Assembly: GCF_044324785.1 (NCBI RefSeq) | Contig: NZ_CP172127.1 | DNA length: 64,000 nucleotides | Strand: one strand, 5' to 3' | DNA from: Escherichia coli | GTDB lineage: Bacteria; Pseudomonadota; Gammaproteobacteria; Enterobacterales; Enterobacteriaceae | Part shown: positions 1-64,000 of the stretch, piece by piece | Layout of the letters: every line of letters begins with the position of its first letter | Position numbering within the stretch: the stretch's first letter is position 1 | Program-made: the position numbers and the translations under genes | The notes under the pieces: model-generated | The model's input: only the letters and a program-made list of their open reading frames with translations | What the model was told of the DNA's origin: nothing | Databases searched by the model: none

Positions 1-246
1 GATGTTCATGAGGGGATAAAATCATACCAAATAAATGAAAATACAACTATTAAGATTTAGGCCATTACGTGAAGATATAATTTACACTCCCCAAGTTAAT
101 ACATATAAGTAATTATATTAATAAATATTTATAAAAGGCATCTAAAGAATAGATGCTTAGAGCCACTTAAACTGCTGTATTGTCTAAATGTAAGAAATAA
201 CGAAATGGGTTTTTGGTGATTACTGTACTCAAAAGGAGTCAAGAAT

Positions 247-3200
247 ATGAAATCAATATTGTATTATTTAGAGCCACGTACAGAATTAAATGACAAATTA
301 TTTCGCTATGCAACACTACGCTCTTATCTACTACCTGAAATTGATGGCCTTAGGATAGCTGATAAGAGCCTCGATTTTAAAATGATCGTTTCTCGTACGA
401 TTTATAATAAAGCAAAACAAAATAATTTAAAAATGGAGGGTATCGATTTTATAATTATTGATGAAGATGTATTTGAAAAGAACTCATATCTGAAGAATAT
501 TAATGTTAGTAATGAATTATATCATGGGAATTTAAATATAAAGGCTAATGAAGAACTAAAATCAATCATATCTGCTTGCCTTCCTGTTGATTATAAACCA
601 GATATTATTATTTCATATGAAAGCCCAGCTCCATTTTTTAAAGAGATATTTCCATCATCTTTACTTTTAAACGCTATGTTTGGAATTTTTTCAAGGGCAC
701 CATTTCCTGCATATGGGTTATTAGACCCATGTGGTTTGTATGAATATTCATATCAATATAAATATGCTGATAAAATTCGTGCTGAGGAGATTTCAGAAGA
801 AGAAAAGGAAGTTATAAAATTACTCAGAAGACAAAGTTCAAGAGCACTTGCTGCTTATCATCCTCTCAAGAAATATATTTCATCATTATATGAAAAATAT
901 GATCGACTTGTTGTATTAGCATGTCAAGTGGATAACTATTTTTCTTATAATAGTTGTACCAATTATCCATCACAATATGCGATGGTGGAAGATGTTCTTT
1001 CTCAAGTTCCATCAAATATTGGTGTTATAGTTACAGAACATGGCTATAAAAGACAAATAAGTGACGAGCAAATTGAGTCTTTAAATGAAAAATACAGTAA
1101 TTTTATATATTTTTCTAAAAAAGATGTATTCACACCAAGTCAATTTATTCTTCCTTATGTAGATGGTGCTTTATCAGTCTCGTCATCGATTGGTTATCAG
1201 GCTGCTTTATGGCAGATTCCATATTTTGGTCTTGGAAAATCACAAGTCGATGTACTCTGTTCAAATACATCATTAATGAGCTTCGTTAATGATGTTGAAA
1301 AAGGCATAAAGATTGATCGTGATAATATTCTTTATGTTTTACTTTCAAAAGTTCACTTATCACATAAAAATGATTTGTTTAATGGAAAATCTTATCTAAA
1401 TAAGTTGAAGGATTTATTTAATAAGTTTACCTCTAATTGCGACGAATATGAGTATTTTAACACTAAAAAAAGTATTGATGAAGTTCGAAAAGATATCATC
1501 TGTGGCAACAGAGAATGGTTACTTAAAAAAAACTTTATTGACTCAAAATTAGTTCCTGAAGTAGACCATTTACGTGTTGCAATGTCGCATTCAAAAGCGA
1601 TCTCTTATGATCTTTTTGATACTCTTGTTGAACGTGATTTTGTTGAACCTCATGAATTATTTAATCTAATTGAATCCCGTGTACGTAATGAGTTAAACAA
1701 TAAAAACTTCCCTTTCTATTATGTAAGACGACAAGCCGAAATTGACTTGCGCAGAGAGACAAGAGGTGAGTTTGAAATTACTCTCGATGAAATTTACGAA
1801 AGATTTCCAAGATACTTTGATCTTACTTTAGAACAACTAGAGAAGATAAAAAATATAGAAATAGATGCTGAAGTCGAACTCGTTCATCCGAAAAAAGAAA
1901 TGGTTCGTGAATTTTATTTTTCTCAAATGATTTGTGAAAGTGTATCTATCATTACAGATATTTATCTTTCTCAGAATGTTATTGAGCGTATTTTACAAAA
2001 AGTAAAAATTAGTGGTTACAATAAATTATTGGTTTCAGCAGAAACTAAAACAAGAAAACATAACGGAACTATTTATCCTGAATATTTGAAATATATAAGA
2101 GATAATTTTGATATTAATGCAGGACAGGCTCTTCATGTCGGTGATAATAAACAAGCTGATGGTGATATGGCTAAAAAACATGGCATAAAAACATATGTAT
2201 TTCAAAAAGCGATTGATAATTACAAAAAATCTTTAATTGCTGATATTTTACGTTCCAGTATTAATCATCCAGGTATTTCGAGTTCTGTTATTAATGGTTT
2301 GTTTGCTAACAAATATCACGCAGGACACTGGTTTAAAATTAACAAGGAATCAATTTTTAATGCTGACGAATATAATTATGGCTATATGGCAATAGGGCCT
2401 CTTGTTGTTGGCTTTACTCAGTGGTTGTATCGGCGGGTTAATAAATTAGGTATCAAAAAATTATATTTCTTATCCCGCGATGGATGGATTCTTAAAAAAA
2501 CATTCGATTATTTTTATCCTGAATCATCATCTGGCATCAAGACCGAATACCTGTACAGCTCTCGTCGAACTGCAATGGTAGCATCGTTAAGAAATATTGA
2601 TGATATTATTGAAGTTGCCTCTCAAAACTTCAATGCTAGAAAGCTAAGTGACTTTTTATCTACTCGTTTTGGGCTGGATGTGGATACTGTTAAAAAATCT
2701 GTTCTTGAAAAATATAATTACAAGCATGACACTATTGTTTCTCCTTATTTTGAATTTGGAAAGCTGATTGGTTTTTTAAAAGATATTCATCATACAATAT
2801 TGTCTAATGCAAAAAATGAACGTGAAAGCTATATCGATTATTTACGAGAAACTGGATTTGAAAATGATTGCTTAAATGGCGGTGCTACTGTTGTTGATAT
2901 TGGTTACAGTGGTTCCATGCAATATTATTTAAAAAAAATACTGCAATGCCCTTGTGTGAACGGATTTTATTTTTTAACACATCACCATAGTCGTGATTAT
3001 TTTTCAAATGATCATTTTGAAGGTTTCTTGCAAAATCTTGATGATCATAAGATCGCTTATAGACATGGATTAAATGATCATGTGTTTATTTTTGAAGCAG
3101 CATTAAGTTCCCCTGAAGGAAGTCTGATTAAAATGGAAGGGAAAGGTCAAGAAAGAGAAATGATTTTTCTCGAGGCAGAAGAAGAGATTGTAAGAAAAAA

Positions 3201-3756
3201 TGCTCTATTAGGAACACATCGTGGCGTAATGGACTTTGTTCATGATATCAAAACTCGTTTTGGTTCTTACTTTAAATACATTGAATTTTCTCCTATTCTT
3301 TCTTCTCAACTTATTTTGAATTTTGCGAATAATCCCAACGGTATAGATGCAGGGATGTTTGCTTCTCATGAAGTCGAAAATGTTTTTGGTGGGGGGTCTG
3401 TATGCTTAATTTCGCCTTTACTAGATTGCTATAAGGACTCTAATGGCACCATTAACCCTAAAATTATCGATGAGTTATTAAAAGCATCTAAATGGAAGAG
3501 AGGTGCCAGTGCTTATTATAACTTAGTCAATGGAACTCAACCGCGAGTTAATCCTGCTAAAATGCCAGCGCCATCTGTTAACCCAGTTGTTGTGAAGCAA
3601 ACGCCACAAACTACTTATGCACATCCTTTAAAGACAACTACGCAGCGTAAACTTGCTAAGTTAAAAAAAGACCCATATTTATTCTTTAATGATTCCCAAA
3701 AACCTCTTTTAAAAAGTTTACGATTGTTCTTCAAAAATACATCAAAGCTTAATTAA
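247..3756 (+). CDS. capsule region 2 (serotype-specific) large multidomain protein; candidate capsule polymerase/transferase with internal HAD-like motif
   Basis: 1169-aa ORF, ATG preceded by AAAGGAG; very AT-rich compared with kps region 1; HAD motif-I-like DLFDTLVERDF in mid-protein; sits between kpsS and the off-window region 3. Confidence 0.6.
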   Translation: MKSILYYLEPRTELNDKLFRYATLRSYLLPEIDGLRIADKSLDFKMIVSRTIYNKAKQNNLKMEGIDFIIIDEDVFEKNSYLKNINVSNELYHGNLNIKANEELKSIISACLPVDYKPDIIISYESPAPFFKEIFPSSLLLNAMFGIFSRAPFPAYGLLDPCGLYEYSYQYKYADKIRAEEISEEEKEVIKLLRRQSSRALAAYHPLKKYISSLYEKYDRLVVLACQVDNYFSYNSCTNYPSQYAMVEDVLSQVPSNIGVIVTEHGYKRQISDEQIESLNEKYSNFIYFSKKDVFTPSQFILPYVDGALSVSSSIGYQAALWQIPYFGLGKSQVDVLCSNTSLMSFVNDVEKGIKIDRDNILYVLLSKVHLSHKNDLFNGKSYLNKLKDLFNKFTSNCDEYEYFNTKKSIDEVRKDIICGNREWLLKKNFIDSKLVPEVDHLRVAMSHSKAISYDLFDTLVERDFVEPHELFNLIESRVRNELNNKNFPFYYVRRQAEIDLRRETRGEFEITLDEIYERFPRYFDLTLEQLEKIKNIEIDAEVELVHPKKEMVREFYFSQMICESVSIITDIYLSQNVIERILQKVKISGYNKLLVSAETKTRKHNGTIYPEYLKYIRDNFDINAGQALHVGDNKQADGDMAKKHGIKTYVFQKAIDNYKKSLIADILRSSINHPGISSSVINGLFANKYHAGHWFKINKESIFNADEYNYGYMAIGPLVVGFTQWLYRRVNKLGIKKLYFLSRDGWILKKTFDYFYPESSSGIKTEYLYSSRRTAMVASLRNIDDIIEVASQNFNARKLSDFLSTRFGLDVDTVKKSVLEKYNYKHDTIVSPYFEFGKLIGFLKDIHHTILSNAKNERESYIDYLRETGFENDCLNGGATVVDIGYSGSMQYYLKKILQCPCVNGFYFLTHHHSRDYFSNDHFEGFLQNLDDHKIAYRHGLNDHVFIFEAALSSPEGSLIKMEGKGQEREMIFLEAEEEIVRKNALLGTHRGVMDFVHDIKTRFGSYFKYIEFSPILSSQLILNFANNPNGIDAGMFASHEVENVFGGGSVCLISPLLDCYKDSNGTINPKIIDELLKASKWKRGASAYYNLVNGTQPRVNPAKMPAPSVNPVVVKQTPQTTYAHPLKTTTQRKLAKLKKDPYLFFNDSQKPLLKSLRLFFKNTSKLN

Positions 3757-3764
3757 TATAATGT

Positions 3765-3792
3765 GAGTCGCACTATGGTGTGACTCTTTTTT
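3765..3792 (+). terminator. putative rho-independent terminator between the two region 2 genes
   Basis: GAGTCGCAC-TATG-GTGTGACTC stem-loop followed by TTTTTT. Confidence 0.35.
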
Positions 3793-3874
3793 ATATGTCA
3801 GTGATAGTTATTAATGAAATATTTAATGCGCGAAGGTGTACGATTTTTACAATATTTAGAGACTGGTGGGTCAA

Positions 3875-4885
3875 ATGAGTATTTCTTTGAAAAATATTGA
3901 TTTTGCTAAAGGTCCTGTTGATTCCCTCCATCATGATTATTACTTATGGCGAGGGAAGAACATTGAGGATAAAAGACTTTTTCTCGTTTTCTCATCTCGG
4001 GGAGCAGGTCCTGGAGAATTTAGTTTTTTCAAAACTTTTGATGCGCTTAATGTAAATGTTTTGCATGTTACACCCTCTGATTTTTCATGGTACCAAAAAG
4101 GGTTAGTCGGTTTAGGGAGTGATTTGCCTTCTGCATTTAAAGCCCTATCTGACCGAATAGATAATTTCTGTATTTATCATAAAATAAAACAAATTATCTG
4201 TGTAGGGGCTTCCATGGGAGGATATGGTGCTTTAATTTATGGGGCTTTATCTAGTAGAAAAATAAAAACAACACTTATTCTTTTTGGCACCGAAACAATA
4301 TTAAAACTTCCTTATTCTAAAAGTTCTGAGAGTGAATTTGATATTCTCAAAAAATTTAAAGATGTAAGGTTTCTAGATTATTCTGATCTTGATGTGAATA
4401 TGATATTTGGTGAGTTTGATATTGTAGATACTTATTGTGCTTTATCGATGCGACATGATCGAAATTTTTCATTTTTTTCATGCACTAGCGCCTCACATGT
4501 TGTTCCGGAATACTTAAATAGACAAATTGGAATTGTTAATTTTTTTACAGACTTCTTATCGGGTGGAAGATCTTTTATTGGAAGAGGCCACATTGCTTCT
4601 GAGCTTTATCCTGAGGATATTTCTCCTCTTCTGTTCTCGAAACAATTTACTGAGGAATACAATAATGCCCTCCTCTGTTGCTTGAAAAAATATCCTTCAT
4701 TTGGGTTTGCATGGAATAGATTAGGCGTATATTTACACAATATAGGAGATCTGGCTGGGTCTTTAGCAGCATTAAAAAGAGCATTTTTCATCAACCCTGA
4801 TTATCCAAATACAATTGAGCATCTTAACTCGGTAAGAAATAAACTAAAAACTTTTAGTTTTTATGTATACTTGTGTGAGGAATGA
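3875..4885 (+). CDS. capsule region 2 protein, alpha/beta-hydrolase-like (GxSxG)
   Basis: ORF 3866-4885 starts at GTG; in-frame ATG at 3875 after GGTGGG; GASMGG nucleophile-elbow-like motif; low GC. Confidence 0.5.
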   Translation: MSISLKNIDFAKGPVDSLHHDYYLWRGKNIEDKRLFLVFSSRGAGPGEFSFFKTFDALNVNVLHVTPSDFSWYQKGLVGLGSDLPSAFKALSDRIDNFCIYHKIKQIICVGASMGGYGALIYGALSSRKIKTTLILFGTETILKLPYSKSSESEFDILKKFKDVRFLDYSDLDVNMIFGEFDIVDTYCALSMRHDRNFSFFSCTSASHVVPEYLNRQIGIVNFFTDFLSGGRSFIGRGHIASELYPEDISPLLFSKQFTEEYNNALLCCLKKYPSFGFAWNRLGVYLHNIGDLAGSLAALKRAFFINPDYPNTIEHLNSVRNKLKTFSFYVYLCEE

Positions 4886-4934
4886 ATAGCAATATATCTC
4901 AATATCTAAGAGCTGGTTTTTATATCGTTCATAG

Positions 4935-6143
4935 TTATAATTTTTTTACTTTTATTTGTTTTCTTACTCTATCCCCATAATAAACCCCATTAACCTGCGT
5001 CTTCACCAATAAATACCCCCGAAACTTCTTAAACAGTTTCATATCCGGTTTAAAATCGGCCTGCCAGAACTGGTGCAAATGCCCTTGATACGTCAAGCCT
5101 TTGATGTCGTACAGGGCATTGCCCATCACTTTGAGTGGTTTGTTGTGAATCAGCGCAGATATCCCCGCCGTACTGTTAATTGTCACCACCGCTTTTGCGT
5201 GGCGTAACAATTCCGGCATCGGGAGATCGTGCACATAAATGACTCGTTCCCCTAAGCCATATTCCTTACTCAACCGCTTAATTAATGGTCGATAGAGTCT
5301 GTGACCACGATCCATTGGATGGTGCTTGATCACCAAATAACTTTCTTTCGGTGCTTTACGTGAAAATGAGTACATGACTTCATTAATATAGTCACGCACA
5401 TCGTTATAATTGCTGTGGTTACGAATCTGGCTATCGTTATACACCTGCAAAACGGCAAGATAATAACGCTGATCCAGCTCATTCATTAACCTCGGCAATA
5501 CCTTACGCTGTGTTACCTTGTAAAGTTGCTTGCGCCAGTATGCACGAACCCAGCAACGTGCTTCATACCAGGGGGAAAACGATTTATGGTGGCGGTAGCG
5601 AGGGAACTCATGGCGGTAATGCCAGCCCATCAGGTAATACCACATCGCATGACCTATACGTTTCATCGTTGAAGGTTTTAAGTTCTCAACGTGCGGCGCA
5701 GGCATATCTGGTAACTTACGATAAAAATCCGGATCGCGCGGTAGCGATGAATATGCGTTTACTCCGCCTTCTTCAACGGTTATAAATTGCGGGCGTAAAT
5801 ATCCTTCTTCAAATGCCAGAAAGCGGAGCCCTTTCGACTTTGCCCAGCGTTTTGCTTCTTTATGCAATGGGCGACAGTCACCAAAACAGAGGATGGTATC
5901 AAAGTCATATTGCCGGTGGAGATCCCGTAACCATCCGGGGAACTCTTTCGGCGTTTGGTAGTAGGCCAGGTATTGTCGATGGCGGCAGTAAAAACGATCC
6001 CCACCGTTGAATACAACATTCACAGCGTTACGTCCTAATGACTCTAACCATTCGGCGACGTCATTGAAAAAAGGTCCCATCGGCCCCTGCAATAGCAGAT
6101 ATTTTTTACCGGATAATAAAACGGTTAGTGCATTACCTTGCAT
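4935..6143 (-). CDS. kpsS: capsule export/poly-Kdo linker transferase KpsS
   Basis: 402-aa protein recognised as KpsS (MQGNALTVLLSGKKYLLLQGPMGPFF...); last gene of region 1 order F-E-D-U-C-S. Confidence 0.85.
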   Translation of the reverse strand: MQGNALTVLLSGKKYLLLQGPMGPFFNDVAEWLESLGRNAVNVVFNGGDRFYCRHRQYLAYYQTPKEFPGWLRDLHRQYDFDTILCFGDCRPLHKEAKRWAKSKGLRFLAFEEGYLRPQFITVEEGGVNAYSSLPRDPDFYRKLPDMPAPHVENLKPSTMKRIGHAMWYYLMGWHYRHEFPRYRHHKSFSPWYEARCWVRAYWRKQLYKVTQRKVLPRLMNELDQRYYLAVLQVYNDSQIRNHSNYNDVRDYINEVMYSFSRKAPKESYLVIKHHPMDRGHRLYRPLIKRLSKEYGLGERVIYVHDLPMPELLRHAKAVVTINSTAGISALIHNKPLKVMGNALYDIKGLTYQGHLHQFWQADFKPDMKLFKKFRGYLLVKTQVNGVYYGDRVRKQIKVKKL

Positions 6144-21804: not shown

Positions 21805-22017
21805 CAGCTTTTCCTTACAGAGGGTGAATAAAAAAGCCGGTACCCACAAATGTGGATACCGGCAGGTACAAAACAGCATGGTCAGATAAAGTGTTTTTTC
21901 CCGGACATAAATGCTTCCCCTCTCTCATCCGCCAGAGAAGTATCAGTCCGTTGTGTGCAATTCCGTTCTGCATGATGAAGAGATTCAGCTGCCTTTTCGC
22001 AGGCCATTAACCACTAT

Positions 22018-22060
22018 AAATGATCGATTGTGACGATCGATACCTGTTTTATCGATCGTT
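22018..22060 (-). promoter_or_regulatory. agn43 phase-variation switch: three GATC Dam sites (OxyR operator region)
   Basis: GATC at about 22022, 22035, 22054 in TGATCGATTGTGACGATCGATACCTGTTTTATCGATCG, about 220 bp upstream of the flu start. Confidence 0.6.
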
Positions 22061-57668: not shown

Positions 57669-58400
57669 ATGAATCAACCAATACACAATGATTACTGGTT
57701 ATCCCGTTTTGAAAGTATTCTCAACAGTGCCCTGGTGCAACACCGTGCCGTCTCGTTAATCCGGGTGGATTTACGTTTCCCTGAGCATATGCCTGTCACC
57801 ATCATGGATCCCGATCCGGATTCAGCGGTGATTTCTCGTTTTTTCGAATCCCTGAAAGCCAAAATTCAGGCTTACCAGCGGAAAAAACGACGTACCAACA
57901 AGCGTGTGCGTGCAACCACCCTGCATTATTTCTGGTGTCGGGAGTTTGGCAAGGAAAAAGGCAGGAAACATTATCACGTGATATTACTGCTCAACAAAGA
58001 TACCTGGTGCTCGCCAGGGGATTTCACCGTTCCTTCTTCGCTGGCGACGCTGATCCAACTGGCATGGTGTAGCGCTCTGCATCTTGAGCCCTGGCAGGGT
58101 AATGGACTGGTTCATTTTTCCAGGCGGACGCCTTTCCGTAAACCGGCATCATCTGATGCTCGCCCTTCTTCCGATGATACGCCTTTGTCGGGTGGATGTT
58201 CTGAAACCAGGAAGGCTTCAGACAAAAAGCCGGGTGAAGCCGCTGTTCTCTGGATCAAGCGTGGTGATGTGGAAGCGATGCAGAAAGCCATGGAGAGAGC
58301 CCGTTATCTCGTGAAGTATGAGACGAAGCAGCATGACGGTTCTGGTCAACGTAATTATGGTTGCAGCCGTGGAGCGGGGCGTCTACTGGATGGCAGGTGA
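57669..58400 (+). CDS. YagK-like inovirus Gp2-type protein (HUH replication-initiator-like)
   Basis: 243 aa; HUH motif HYHVILLL; SD GGAGA. Confidence 0.65.
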   Translation: MNQPIHNDYWLSRFESILNSALVQHRAVSLIRVDLRFPEHMPVTIMDPDPDSAVISRFFESLKAKIQAYQRKKRRTNKRVRATTLHYFWCREFGKEKGRKHYHVILLLNKDTWCSPGDFTVPSSLATLIQLAWCSALHLEPWQGNGLVHFSRRTPFRKPASSDARPSSDDTPLSGGCSETRKASDKKPGEAAVLWIKRGDVEAMQKAMERARYLVKYETKQHDGSGQRNYGCSRGAGRLLDGR

Positions 58401-58726: not shown

Positions 58727-60331
58727 ATGAATTCCGCTTATATGCAATCCTTGCAGACATCCCACCACTTCCCAGCTGATTTAACCTACAGATTATTTCC
58801 TAGTGAGCTTGCATATCTCATTGACGACTTATATGAAAGTACCCAACTTCCGCTGGAGCTCATTTTTAATACTGTACTGGCAACGCTCTCACTCTCCTGT
58901 CAGTCACTGGTTGACGTTGTTCATCCTCACACCAACATGCCGGAACCCTGCTCACTTTATCTGTTGGCAATCGCAGAGCCAGGCGCGGGAAAAACAACGA
59001 TAAACAGACTGGTGATGAACCCCTGTTACGAATTTGCCGATCGACTCATTCAACAATACGAAGAGAGAAACAAAGATTATAAGACTGAACTACAGATCTG
59101 GAATACCCGGCAGAAAGCGCTTGCTGCCAATTTAAGAAAGGCTGTTAACCGGGGGTATCCGGGGGAACAGGAAGAAGAGGCGCTGCGTAATCACGAAAGA
59201 AATAAACCGACACGTCCGGTTCGACCGAATTTTATCTATGAAGATGTTTCGCTTAAAGCGCTTGTGGAAGGGCTCAATGAACATCCTGAGGCAGGGGTTA
59301 TTTCTGACGAGGCGGTCACTTTTTTCAGAAGCTATCTGAAAAATTATCCGGGCCTGTTGAATAAAGCATGGAGTGGACAACCGTTTGATTTTGGACGGGC
59401 TGACGAGAAATACCATATCACGCCACGTCTGACATTTTCGTTAATGTCCCAGCCGGATGTCTTTACGAATTATATAAATAAAAATGACGTACTGGCGTGG
59501 GGAAGCGGATTTCTTTCCCGGTTTCTGTTCAGTCAGACCGGAAGTCCTTCCCGGGTACGGGATTATACGAGAGGCGAGTTCAGAACAAAACCAACCCTGG
59601 AGAAGTTTCATAAAAAGATTAACGGATTTCTGTTAAGCCATAACATTAATTCCCCCGGTATGAGCACCGAAAGGAAAACATTAAAACTTGCAAAGAAAGC
59701 GTTGGGGGAGTGGCAGGAAAACCAGATTAAGATTGAAAGAAAAGCGCTTGCAGGAGGGGAGTGGGAACACATCAGAGATATTGTTCTGAAAGCAGGTTCT
59801 AATATACTGAGGATAGCTGGAATATTCACCTGCTATTGCTATAAAGATGCTGAGGAAATTGAATCAATTGCGCTTTTTAAAGCTATGCATCTCATGGACT
59901 GGTATCTGGAGGAGGCGAGCACAATATTTTATCCCATGTCTGCACGATGCCAGTTTGAACAGGATGCCTGTGAACTGTATGCATGGATTATGACCCGAAT
60001 AAGGCAGAATAATTGGCGTGCTATCAGGAAAACAGACATTGAAAGATATGGTCCCAATCGTCTGAGAAGAGCAGAAAAACTTACACCTGTACTCAATCAG
60101 TTAATCGCTCAAAATTATTTCCGTATCATCAAGATGCGATCGCATCAGGCACTTTATGTTTCTGCTCTTGATAATAATGGTTACATCCTTCCTTTCGGCG
60201 CAATGTCTTACGAACCGTTTGATATTGTTCCACCCCAGTATAACCATAATGCGAAAACATATTCCGTTGTTATTCCACCGGCATTAATTCAGTCATTTAC
60301 ACCTGATTCCTCAGCTTACACCTTATTTTAA
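58727..60331 (+). CDS. YfjI-like island protein with Walker A-like P-loop
   Basis: 534 aa; AEPGAGKTT motif; strong SD GAAGGAGG. Confidence 0.6.
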   Translation: MNSAYMQSLQTSHHFPADLTYRLFPSELAYLIDDLYESTQLPLELIFNTVLATLSLSCQSLVDVVHPHTNMPEPCSLYLLAIAEPGAGKTTINRLVMNPCYEFADRLIQQYEERNKDYKTELQIWNTRQKALAANLRKAVNRGYPGEQEEEALRNHERNKPTRPVRPNFIYEDVSLKALVEGLNEHPEAGVISDEAVTFFRSYLKNYPGLLNKAWSGQPFDFGRADEKYHITPRLTFSLMSQPDVFTNYINKNDVLAWGSGFLSRFLFSQTGSPSRVRDYTRGEFRTKPTLEKFHKKINGFLLSHNINSPGMSTERKTLKLAKKALGEWQENQIKIERKALAGGEWEHIRDIVLKAGSNILRIAGIFTCYCYKDAEEIESIALFKAMHLMDWYLEEASTIFYPMSARCQFEQDACELYAWIMTRIRQNNWRAIRKTDIERYGPNRLRRAEKLTPVLNQLIAQNYFRIIKMRSHQALYVSALDNNGYILPFGAMSYEPFDIVPPQYNHNAKTYSVVIPPALIQSFTPDSSAYTLF

Positions 60332-60930
60332 AACAATTTTGTGAGTAGAAAACGAAAATCATAATCCTTCGAATGAAGGTTGATGATAAGGTGTGTTGCA
60401 TATCCTGCACCTGTGCAAATATTCACCAATTATTGGGTGTGAATGAAAATTTCTCTGAAAAAATCGCTATGGTAGCAACAGTAGCAGCACATACACTACA
60501 TCTGTGATTTGGTTTTGTTTTCATAATGACCTGCTGTCAGAGCTGATTGAATGCTGGGATGTGCGCACTGGTGGAAGAGTGGTTTTCGTTTCAGATATAA
60601 CGAAAGGCAATCGAAAGATTGTTTTAAACATGGATTAAAGCTAATCATTAACCATATTGTGTGAGTTTTTATATATAAGTTTGTTTGATTCTTGCCGTGA
60701 TGAGTGCTGGGGTATATGACGATGTCGCTCTCTTTCTGAATAACAAATTATTATTCGTCTGTTACTGATAAGGGATGCGATTCATGTTTTAATAGATGGT
60801 TGAAGAAAATTAATTTGATATTTTTTTTGTAAGGGAATGGAACTGTCCGGAATATGTTCAGAACGGCGGATTTCTCATTTCCATTCATTAAACATGGATA
60901 ATTTTAATTTAGGTTTATTACTATTATTAT

Positions 60931-61045
60931 ACTCACTCCCTTTTTGATATAATCTCTATTGTTATTTACTTCCTGTCTTTACTCACTCCCTTTTTCATAC
61001 AATCTCTATTGTTATTTACTTCCTGTCTTTACTCACTCTCTATCT
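60931..61045. repeat. 50-bp tandem direct repeat (about 2.3 units)
   Basis: ACTCACTCCCTTTTTGATATAATCTCTATTGTTATTTACTTCCTGTCTTT repeated immediately with two mismatches, then a partial third unit. Confidence 0.6.
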
Positions 61046-61920
61046 TTACGATTATATTCACTCTATCGTTACACATTCCATTAGTATTACTCTTGTTATC
61101 GTATTCATTCCATCCCTCAATCATATTTACTGTAACTCATATGATGTTCAGGTAAGTTATTCTCTACCATTCTACTGATGATATTCATCTGTTCTCATTT
61201 TCACTGAAACAGCAATTAATTTTAATCTTATCCATCATGAGCTGTATTTTCTTAACAATGGTTGTTTATCTGAAGTGTTTTAACTATTCTGATGAACATC
61301 AATTCTTTTGTCATTACTGATTAACCGAATGTTTACTTTTTGATAAGGTATCCATGATTCTGTAACGATTAACAGAGCTGGATAAACAATGGAATTGACA
61401 GGAGAGATTCCTGATTATGTTTGTTCTGGGTTGTATTATCTAAGATGCAGGATGAAAATCATGTCAGTGGTATTTTTTATTCTGCTATCGTGAGCCGTGA
61501 ATGTTCATGTCCTTAAGAACAGATTGAATGAGCGCATATAAGTTTATTGCATTGGCCTTGTACACAGTTTTTACAACCACTGAGAGCAAGTTTGTAGTTT
61601 ATGATGTGATTGGTCGCAATATGTTTCTTAACCTTCTGGACGTGGTGTTTTATCGCGTATTTACAGTATTTCGTGATGTTTTATTGAGTCTGTATTTTCT
61701 TTACTCCTCGTTTATCTCATCTCTTTAGCTAATACCATCAGATAATCCATTTCTTTCTGCATAATGCTGCGTATCGTTAATAACCCGTCGTATCCATTCT
61801 GCTACAGCATGCCTGATAAATACCATCTGTAAGTTATTACCGTTTTAGATCTGATTATGAGCGAAAGCATTAATTCGTTCACAGAGCTTAAAACATCATT
61901 AACTTTCAGGAGTCATCAAC

Positions 61921-62487
61921 ATGCCTAAATCTTACACACCAAACTGGTTTTTTACCGCTTTACTTGACAATCACATCAATCAAATGATGGCACGCTATTC
62001 CTGCCTGCGGGCCTTACGGATGGATTTCTTCTACAGGAAAGATACGCCTGATTTCTTACAACCTGATCATCGCTGGCTTGAATTGCAGTTGCGTATGCTG
62101 CTGGAGCAGGTGGAACAATTTGAAAATATCGTTGGTTTCTTCTGGGTGATTGAATGGACGGCTGATCATGGTTTTCATGCGCATGTGGTTTTCTGGATCG
62201 ATCGTCAGAGGGTTAAAAAAATATATCCCTTTGCGGAGCGGATAGCGGAATGCTGGCGGTCTATTACGCATAACAGCGGTTCGGCACACCGCTGTACATA
62301 TCAGCCGCATTATACATACAACATCAACATTCCTGTGCGCCACAACGATCCTGAAAGCATCGATAATATTCGCGGTGCCCTGCATTATCTGGCAAAAGAA
62401 GAGCAAAAAGACGGGCTGTGTGCCTACGGCTGCAATGAAGTTCCTGAACGTCCTGCTGCAGGGCGTCCTCGTAAGCCTCACTTCTGA
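61921..62487 (+). CDS. YfjJ-like inovirus Gp2-type protein (HUH replication-initiator-like)
   Basis: 188 aa; HUH motif FHAHVVFWI; SD AGGAG. Confidence 0.7.
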   Translation: MPKSYTPNWFFTALLDNHINQMMARYSCLRALRMDFFYRKDTPDFLQPDHRWLELQLRMLLEQVEQFENIVGFFWVIEWTADHGFHAHVVFWIDRQRVKKIYPFAERIAECWRSITHNSGSAHRCTYQPHYTYNINIPVRHNDPESIDNIRGALHYLAKEEQKDGLCAYGCNEVPERPAAGRPRKPHF

Positions 62488-62744
62488 AGCTTAAATCCTG
62501 AGCTTCCTGTCCTGGAAACACTCCGTCGGTAAAAACTTACCGCCTTGCTTAATGATGTGAACTGAAGTCAACGGAGATCATTCACTCTGAACCACATCCG
62601 GTGTTCTGTCCCTTGTCGGTGACCTGATCTTCCCGTTCTGCCCCGGTTCTTCACTTATTCCATCAACCCCATCCGCAAACCATAACACGTCAGCTTATTC
62701 ACGGGCAGGACGCATTGTGGGCTGCGCATAACGGAGCATATCTT

Positions 62745-63305
62745 ATGAATGCTATCCCTTATTTCGACTATAGCCTGGCCCCCTTCTGGCCATCTTATCA
62801 GAACAAAGTCATCGGCGTCCTTGAGCGTGCGCTGCGTGAGCAGTCCGGCTCACGGATACGGCGGATCCTGCTTCGTCTGCCGTGTGAATATGACAATACC
62901 TTCAACAGCAGAACGACCTGGTTTGGTATGGATTTTATCGAAACCGTCAGTGCGCTGATGAATGCAACACCCGGACGTGACCTTTGCTGGCTCCTGACCC
63001 GTCATCCTGAAAAACCGGAATACCATGTGGTGCTGTGCGTCAGACAGGAGTATTTCGACGGCCCCGAACTGGATCGGTTGATTCTGGATGCCTGGAGTAA
63101 CGTGCTGGGTTTCGCGTCACCAGGTGAAGCAAAGCCGTACCAGAAGCAGATCACCCGGGATGTGGTACTGGATCGCCGGTCACCGGACTGCGAAGCCCTG
63201 TTTAAGGACCTTATCTGGGCGTTCAGTGATTTCGCCCGCGATCGCCGTGGAGTGCGCGATCCGGAAGCCCGTTGCCTCGCCGGTAATCCCGGTTGGCAGT
63301 GCTGA
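62745..63305 (+). CDS. YagK/YfjJ-related protein with partial HUH motif
   Basis: Track ORF starts at TTG 62715; ATG at 62745 after ACGGAG; motif PEYHVVLCV has one His only. Confidence 0.5.
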   Translation: MNAIPYFDYSLAPFWPSYQNKVIGVLERALREQSGSRIRRILLRLPCEYDNTFNSRTTWFGMDFIETVSALMNATPGRDLCWLLTRHPEKPEYHVVLCVRQEYFDGPELDRLILDAWSNVLGFASPGEAKPYQKQITRDVVLDRRSPDCEALFKDLIWAFSDFARDRRGVRDPEARCLAGNPGWQC

Positions 63306-63373: not shown

Positions 63374-63607
63374 ATGTTGACCACAATAAGCCACGACAGC
63401 GTGTTGCTGCGTGCCGACGATCCCCTGATCGACATGAACTACATCACCAGTTTCACCGGCATGACCGATAAATGGTTTTACAGGCTGATCAGTGAAGGTC
63501 ATTTCCCTAAACCCATCAAACTGGGGCGCAGCAGCCGCTGGTACAAAAGTGAAGTGGAGCAGTGGATGCAGCAGCGAATTGAGGAATCACGAGGAGCAGC
63601 AGCATGA
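63374..63607 (+). CDS. alpA: AlpA-family transcriptional regulator, second copy
   Basis: ITSFTGMTDKWFYRLISEGHFPKPIKLGRSSRWYKSEVEQW; track ORF trimmed to MLTTISH after GAGGA. Confidence 0.8.
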   Translation: MLTTISHDSVLLRADDPLIDMNYITSFTGMTDKWFYRLISEGHFPKPIKLGRSSRWYKSEVEQWMQQRIEESRGAAA

Positions 63608-63696: not shown

Positions 63697-64000
63697 CAAC
63701 TCCCGCTCATCTTTCTGCTGGCACCCTCTGGCCAGCCAACTGTTTGTCATCATTTCCTGACTGATTCGTCATTCCCTTCGTCCCGCCAGTCACTGGTGTT
63801 TGTATCGTACCGTGCCGGTGTCGATGTGCGCTTTCCGTGTGTCTGGTCTGCACCGGCTTAACAAAATTCAACGGGGATAAAATAGTGCAAATAACCGAAG
63901 CCTTACTTTCAGCGCCGGGGGAAATCCGGCGTTTTGTTCAGCAGGCGGTGGACCACTGGCCAAATCTGTTGGCATTTCACTTCACGCTCCATTCGGCAGA

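Follow-up and report, generated by a model that had tools for sequence, protein, structure and literature searches.

A near-perfect 50-bp tandem repeat lies in non-coding DNA upstream of a gene for a Rep-like protein, in a 64,000-nt stretch of the Escherichia coli genome (here called the window). The question raised by this locus is whether the repeat is a functional element, since a preliminary description had proposed a contingency locus with strain-dependent copy number or an origin element, or whether it is the trace of a single mutational event. The evidence assembled here gives good confidence in the second answer: the repeat is a real, recent and private tandem duplication flanked by microhomology; it lies in a tract prone to slippage, a second allele was probably its template, and it is most likely neutral.

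Structure of the repeat array

Tandem Repeats Finder places the array at 60930-61038 (period 50, 2.2 copies, 96% matches, score 204), which shifts the start of the repeat one base from the 60931 first given and leaves the near-perfect 50-bp repeat itself intact; a 50-nt repeat with 96% identity is far beyond chance. The first unit (60930-60979, + strand; TTTTTGATATAAT) is the extra copy, missing from the closest relatives, and the second (60980-61029, + strand; TTTTTCATACAAT) is the same as the single unit of relatives of the YJ4 type. A repeat search of the window found the units identical at 48 of 50 positions, the exceptions being unit position 17 (G in unit 1, C in unit 2) and unit position 21 (T and C, respectively), after which the two versions are called the G..T and C..C haplotypes. 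Two full units with two differences therefore stand, whereas the partial third unit of the preliminary description shrinks to nine exact bases, TACTCACTC (61030-61038, + strand), a direct repeat of the unit start; 13 of the 16 nt formerly assigned to it match, and beyond the third start the sequence is unrelated to the unit (22 of 50 identical). By chance TACTCACTC would be expected 0.32 times in the window; it is there three times, always inside the array, and brackets the 50-nt unit already in single-copy alleles.

The array lies in an intergenic gap of 1,589 nt (60332-61920) with 33.9% G+C, compared with 47.4% for the window, and its end is 883 bp from the ATG at 61921; a distance of about 880 bp within an AT-rich non-coding region of about 1.6 kb had been described correctly. 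Among the matches listed, NCBI annotation leaves the intergenic region featureless except for a "hypothetical protein" under H172.

Island setting and the leader module

The region of the window matches E. coli chromosomes and is an E. coli genomic island. In YJ4 the same stretch reads, from left to right, an inovirus Gp2 family gene, a YfjI family gene, about 1.5 kb without features, an inovirus-type Gp2 gene, a hypothetical protein, an AlpA-type helix-turn-helix regulator, two hypothetical proteins, ProQ/FinO, and dnd phosphorothioation genes; to the left of the region is a CP4-57-like set of genes for GTPase, DUF932, antirestriction, JAB and DUF987 proteins. Window positions 1-6000 contain genes of capsule (kps-type) biosynthesis and ABC transporters; in the closest genome, NRZ14408, the capsule region sits in an island reaching to tRNA-Phe some 48 kb onward, an arrangement with which the window is not collinear.

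Pfam assigns DUF3987 to the YfjI-family gene that precedes the gap (58727-60331, + strand), YagK_YfjJ_C to the gene at 57669, and AlpA to 63374-63607; NCBIfam gave no matches for four neighbouring proteins. The 57669 protein is 30% identical to YfjJ of strain K-12 (E 3e-27). The gene after the gap (61921-62487, + strand) encodes 188 aa and is annotated as an "inovirus-type Gp2 / YagK-YfjJ domain" protein, distantly HUH Rep-like: it is 21% identical to K-12 YfjJ (pairwise E 0.014), the H-x-H and Tyr positions of the two align, and it scores below threshold with both REP_ORF2-G2P (25.6 bits, cut-off 27.8) and YagK_YfjJ_C (22.4 bits, cut-off 25.8). The earlier label of a YfjJ-like HUH gene is thus defensible by the aligned residues, but loose at 21% identity and sub-threshold Pfam scores. 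Four small genes in this part of the window (57669-58400, 61921-62487, 62745-63305, and 63887 to the window end) are possibly paralogous, one being a clear YagK/YfjJ member and one a distant relative; the 186-aa ORF at 62745-63305 has no Pfam match and contains a stretch, EYHVVL, that resembles the H-x-H motif, and homologues of the last ORF match PF27752 (UCP030791).

The non-coding, AT-rich leader of the Rep-like gene (60888-61920, + strand; about 1 kb, 32.9% G+C) travels with the gene downstream of it. A match to the leader is present in 1,572 of 5,426 E. coli genomes (29%), in up to five places per genome, and its upstream neighbours other than the YfjI gene include an IS element with astA, an IS21 fragment, a TIR-domain gene, a sugar kinase, and ireA, the last on IncK2/Z and other conjugative plasmids. 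At the loci that lack the YfjI gene, homology to the window starts at about 60865-60895, just left of a 28-mer at 60902-60929, and in the shortest versions it ends after the small ORF behind the AlpA-like gene, near 63800-63940. With these limits, the repeat falls at the 5' edge of an approximately 3-kb module (60888 to about 63900), which consists of the leader, the Rep-like gene, a 190-aa ORF, the AlpA-like gene and a 52-aa ORF. Twelve nucleotides, TTAAACATGGAT, are repeated exactly and in direct orientation at 60624-60635 and 60888-60899, 264 nt apart, and the module's left edge falls at the second copy; where the upstream neighbour is a different one, only AAA(C/T)ATGGAT and the sequence after it are shared. 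Plasmid pSCU-106-1 (IncK2/Z; locus L037, 5001-5323) and seven other conjugative plasmids carry only the first 390 nt or so of the module (60888-61280, including the tract around the repeat), downstream of ireA and closely followed by IS66-family (ISEc8) transposase genes.

The leader has never been annotated and includes a compositionally extreme tract, described below; its last 350 nt before the ATG at 61921 are almost invariant. In Citrobacter, Salmonella diarizonae, Enterobacter and Mixta, the genes for homologues 50-54% identical to the Rep-like protein have an ORF of 197-207 aa about 200 nt upstream and no such leader, and the possibility that the leader is a decayed copy of that ORF was rejected, tblastn giving no match (E above 1). 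Data from K-12 are inapplicable because the yfjI-yfjJ gap of its CP4-57 is merely about 150 nt. A phage collection gave no match, and titles and abstract openings of the literature on yfjI/yfjJ, YagK, inovirus Gp2 and PF11726 do not describe the leader. A terminator-like hairpin in mid-leader (61399-61413, + strand; CAGGAGAGATTCCTG with a T-rich tail) has a G-C pair of its stem changed to A-T in relatives; another (60366-60379, - strand), just past the stop codon of the YfjI-family gene, would end leftward transcripts leaving the intergenic region.

Coding or RNA genes were also considered and rejected. The longest stop-to-stop stretches are 76-83 codons with no conserved ORF, and a 66-aa ORF at 61528 is broken by indels of 1, 13 and 14 nt in relatives. 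A gathering-score search of the whole window with Rfam 15 found no family in the leader, the only hit being IS102 RNA (21823-22059, - strand; 64.8 bits, gathering score 46), which points to an IS903/IS102-type element, and a relaxed Rfam search of 60200-62000 stayed at chance level (best 13-20 bits, cut-offs 50-100). The window has no tRNA or tmRNA genes. RNAalifold analysis of 18 leader sequences gave a weak signal, with a covariation term of -4.95 out of -74.7 kcal/mol and compensatory changes in 9 of 179 pairs.

Copy number of the unit in other genomes

About 24 best matches to the intergenic region, identical to each other, are 99.7% identical to the window and span 1,532 nt against 1,581 nt. 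Alignment of the window with YJ4 leaves a clean 50-nt gap, YJ4 having one unit with TACTCACTC at its start and again after it, as do other single-copy alleles of this leader type; the derived allele is the ancestral one plus exactly one head-to-tail segment, in flanks that carry only two other private changes. Bracketing by TACTCACTC and exactly one extra segment are the marks that slippage or unequal recombination usually leaves. Outside the array, the window differs from the YJ4-type genomes over 1.5 kb by just a 1-nt deletion and one substitution, so the description of the expansion as recent was apt. Near 61659-61663, changes private to the window among all relatives read are the loss of one T from a T-run and a G-to-A substitution; both are common to the Logan contig L046.

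A 40-mer was built across the unit-unit junction so that single-copy genomes could not seed a match. The 40-mer had no match in 5,426 complete E. coli genomes, and a junction-specific 26-mer, TTCCTGTCTTTACTCACTCCCTTTTT, had none in metagenome contigs, among which a control 26-mer taken at the array's right edge found 13, all single-copy. Of approximately 45 related loci examined, about 28 were read across the unit itself, each with one copy, and in the others the tract alleles and contig starts give no sign of a second unit. The comparison of copy number across related genomes that the preliminary description had called for therefore gives a count essentially fixed at one, contrary to its suggestion of variation between strains, and none of the copy-number differences by which a contingency locus or VNTR is defined were found in the 5,426 genomes, the metagenome contigs or the loci in which the unit was read.

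Logan contig L046 (ERR13187251; three samples) is identical to window positions 61009-62766 with no mismatches, private changes included, and the last base of its first 31-mer is the very one at which TACTCACTC followed by T differs from TACTCACTC followed by C. Because a k=31 graph must break where TACTCACTC continues with both C and T, we infer from the contig break that the duplication is present in the Logan samples. The duplication is thus probably real and the property of a small lineage, not a population-level polymorphism.

Two natural haplotypes and the source of the extra unit

In complete E. coli genomes the single-copy locus exists in two haplotypes, of which C..C is exact in 244 genomes and G..T in 95; every one of the approximately 28 loci in which the unit was read is G..T or C..C, with no intermediate. 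The haplotype of unit 1 is the single-copy allele of HH45, 47-1826 and 97-3250. The flanks of the window on both sides of the array are YJ4 (C..C-type) variants, and a YJ4-type left flank joined to G..T was found in no complete genome (best match 99.0%). C..C also occurs on leaders merely 82-83% identical to that of the window (L007 and L009), and since the window differs little from the YJ4 type, the split between the haplotypes must long predate the duplication.

Slipped-strand mispairing or out-of-register recombination at the 9-nt TACTCACTC would add one segment between direct repeats. As the two units carry both natural haplotypes and both flanks are of the C..C type, the extra unit is most likely a copy from another leader, of the G..T type, and would have been copied out of register from that version of the same leader via TACTCACTC microhomology or the unit itself. 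The donor may have been another island in the same cell or incoming DNA; such donors are plausible because up to five places per genome match the region, and many genomes hold 2-5 copies of the leader. No G..T donor copy is seen within the 64-kb window, and the conversion tract in a copying event would have to be short (on the left, less than about 130 nt). Had the unit been duplicated in place and then mutated twice, each mutation would have needed the right site and the right base; by our own arithmetic, the chance that two random substitutions within the 50 nt yield the other haplotype is 1/(1225 x 9), or 1 in 11,025 (about 9e-5), and copying appears more economical. Selection for a new promoter after duplication in place is conceivable, both differences turning TCATACAAT into TGATATAAT. 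A template switch at a quasi-palindrome was rejected as the source of the G..T/C..C pair: a downstream complement, GATTATAT, explains the T and not the G.

The likely effect of the duplication would be none or slight: an unstructured, C-rich, G-poor leader tract would become 50 nt longer, and a second -10-like hexamer would be added about 970 bp upstream of the Rep-like gene. The duplication most likely has no dedicated function, a conclusion that rests on absence of evidence for one. Alone it is of little import, as an example of a low-complexity non-coding tract growing by short tandem duplication, and a candidate phase-variation or origin element can be struck from the list. Its unusual detail is that the copies preserve two natural alleles, and so make a small, datable record of exchange between island copies.

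The G-poor tract around the repeat

The repeat is contained in a G-poor, pyrimidine-rich tract (60914-61116, + strand) that is the compositional extreme of the window. It includes the most G-depleted 150 nt (6 G, compared with a mean of 35.9 and s.d. of 7.6; 38 C), the most pyrimidine-rich stretch (75%, compared with a mean of 51% and s.d. of 5.3), and the highest C/G ratio (5.6, the runner-up being 3.4). As RNA the tract is essentially unstructured, with an MFE of -4.7 kcal/mol over 201 nt (shuffled sequences, -5.8 +/- 2.3). Directly 5' of the repeat is the conserved 28-mer TTTTAATTTAGGTTTATTACTATWATTA (60902-60929, + strand), which has at most a few substitutions in related loci.

With its limits set at the conserved anchors TTTAGGTTTATTACTAT and TCAATCATA, the tract ranges from 119 to 196 nt across 15 distinct alleles, each of which has just 5-10 G, and its poverty in G is kept even where the sequence can no longer be aligned (L008, L010 and L029). 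Tandem repeats of other kinds are present in other lineages: period 11 with 2.1-2.3 copies in L009, L033 and L035; period 15 with 3.4 copies and period 9 with 4.3 copies, the latter 100% identical, in L010; and period 23 with 2.2 copies in L029. A 23-nt indel in related tracts is bracketed by TCTATCTTTAC and TCTATCGTTAC. From these sequence comparisons, the 50-bp repeat appears to be a single episode in the evolution of a tract whose own motifs are habitually duplicated and deleted, a turnover that would preserve the odd composition without selection. The perfect 9-nt repeat of L010 (strain Survcare321), TCCACCTTC in 4.3 copies some 150-190 nt into the orthologous tract, would, judging by its unit size, be likelier than the 50-mer to prove a variable repeat.

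A small ORF that crosses the array begins at ATG 60894 (60894-60947 in the window); in single-copy C..C alleles it has 46 aa (MDNFNLGLLLLLYSLPFSYNLYC...; L001, 12555-12695), and in the G..T haplotype the G introduces a TGA that ends it after 17 codons. It has no Shine-Dalgarno sequence, is missing in L009 and L010, and is probably not a gene.

Alternative explanations

An assembly artefact would fit the absence of the duplication from every other assembled genome (5,426 genomes and the metagenome contigs), but is hardly credible: mis-assembly of a single unit would not give rise to the two differences between the copies, and an independent contig from three Logan samples is identical downstream and breaks exactly at the predicted k=31 branch point. 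A phase-variable locus, in which high-frequency changes of unit number switch expression, could be imagined from a tandem repeat upstream of a gene in a tract that is indel-prone across lineages. It is close to refuted, and we give it scarcely any credence: there are only two copies of a long, 50-nt unit, not identical and hence slower to slip; two or more units were seen in none of the 5,426 genomes and no metagenome contig, and at none of the approximately 28 loci read; and the array, 883 bp from the gene, does not appear to lie in a promoter spacer or a reading frame; no promoter there is better than chance, and the 46-aa ORF across it is not conserved. Another possibility is that the neighbouring HUH Rep-like protein, or the YfjI helicase-like protein, nicks or binds the DNA at the repeat or uses it as part of an origin, with the units acting as iterons. 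To its credit, the AT-rich region has a DUF3987 helicase-like gene on one side and a Rep-like gene on the other, the conserved 28-mer adjoins the repeat, and TTACT-type motifs number five in the single-copy tract against about one expected by our own estimate. CTTGATA is the nick motif of the pC194/phiX174 Rep family, and the G..T allele holds TTTGATA, a match at six of seven positions that can serve as a lead. Yet the common C..C allele destroys the TTGATA match, and the inverted repeats that might form a nick hairpin are weak (71-86% complementary). The unit is single in every relative, which means that the 50-mer is not an iteron; the tract varies in length and is not conserved in sequence between lineages, its self-shift identity profile is flat with no periodicity, and three or more similar repeats whose sequence and spacing persist among relatives were not seen. 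No perfect DnaA box (TTWTNCACA) is present in 60332-61920, and homologues at 50-54% identity in other genera do without such a leader. Like the contingency locus, the origin element proposed in the preliminary description fails its defining tests, and an origin role for the repeat is very unlikely.

A regulatory role in the Rep-like/AlpA operon is unlikely too, though it has more in its favour. The duplication would either add an active extended -10 promoter or lengthen a Rho-loading (rut) site within a long 5' leader. Unit 1 contains TGATATAAT (60945-60953, + strand), a perfect extended -10 consensus, where unit 2 has the weaker TCATACAAT; both differences between the units fall within this -10-like element, both towards the consensus, and the conserved 28-mer occupies the UP/-35 position for such a promoter. 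Against this, there is no usable -35 hexamer, a perfect TGNTATAAT is at chance frequency (two in the window, 2.24 expected), the unit 1 element scores 6.8 with a weight matrix by which 385 sites in the 64-kb window score at least 6 (our own scan), and a promoter scan gave three sites, all on the - strand and fewer than in shuffled sequences. Since the common C..C allele has no perfect element, the element is not required. As for Rho, RNA that is C-rich, G-poor and unstructured has the classical properties of a rut site, and the tract has this composition (38 C and 6 G in 150 nt, with a C/G ratio that is the extreme of the window, and an MFE of -4.7 kcal/mol) over more than the roughly 80 nt that a rut site takes at the least; its G-poverty persists where the tract is unalignable (L008, L010 and L029). 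But duplication of its own motifs could maintain the G-poverty without selection, and the two-unit allele is confined to one lineage. Distinct from any role of the duplication, there is an outside chance that the 5' edge of the module, comprising the G-depleted tract and the 28-mer, is an uncharacterised cis-acting site, either an HUH end or nick site for movement or replication or a Rho-dependent silencing attenuator, with an activity that tract length tunes; if so, length changes such as the 50-bp duplication would tune that activity. The leader is a candidate for Rho- or H-NS-dependent silencing or for recognition by the HUH protein, and an unannotated leader with an extreme 5' edge, before a Rep-like/AlpA module in about a third of E. 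coli genomes, may be the more useful by-product of this analysis.

Comparison with known systems

Contingency loci and VNTRs resemble the array in being tandem repeats in non-coding DNA upstream of a gene; they differ from it in that the unit here is long (50 nt), present in two copies, without copy-number polymorphism in 5,426 genomes, and far from the start codon and from any identified promoter. With iteron-type origins (P4 ori/crr, and the PICI ori downstream of pri-rep) the locus shares AT-rich non-coding DNA with direct repeats, preceded by a helicase-like gene and followed by a Rep-like gene. Unlike theirs, its repeats are not conserved in number, sequence or spacing, DnaA boxes are lacking, and the tract goes with the downstream gene, as part of its module, and not with the YfjI gene. 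The rut regions of long 5' leaders and of H-NS-silenced acquired DNA are similar in having about 150-200 nt that are C-rich, G-poor and unstructured on what is here the coding strand of both flanking genes, but the resemblance of the tract is in composition only. The closest likeness is to microhomology-flanked tandem duplications, with which the array shares the bracketing 9-nt repeat, head-to-tail units without filler bases, and a low-complexity tract that has undergone similar events in other lineages. It departs from them in that the copies are non-identical and carry two natural haplotypes, which points to heteroallelic out-of-register copying rather than simple intramolecular slippage.
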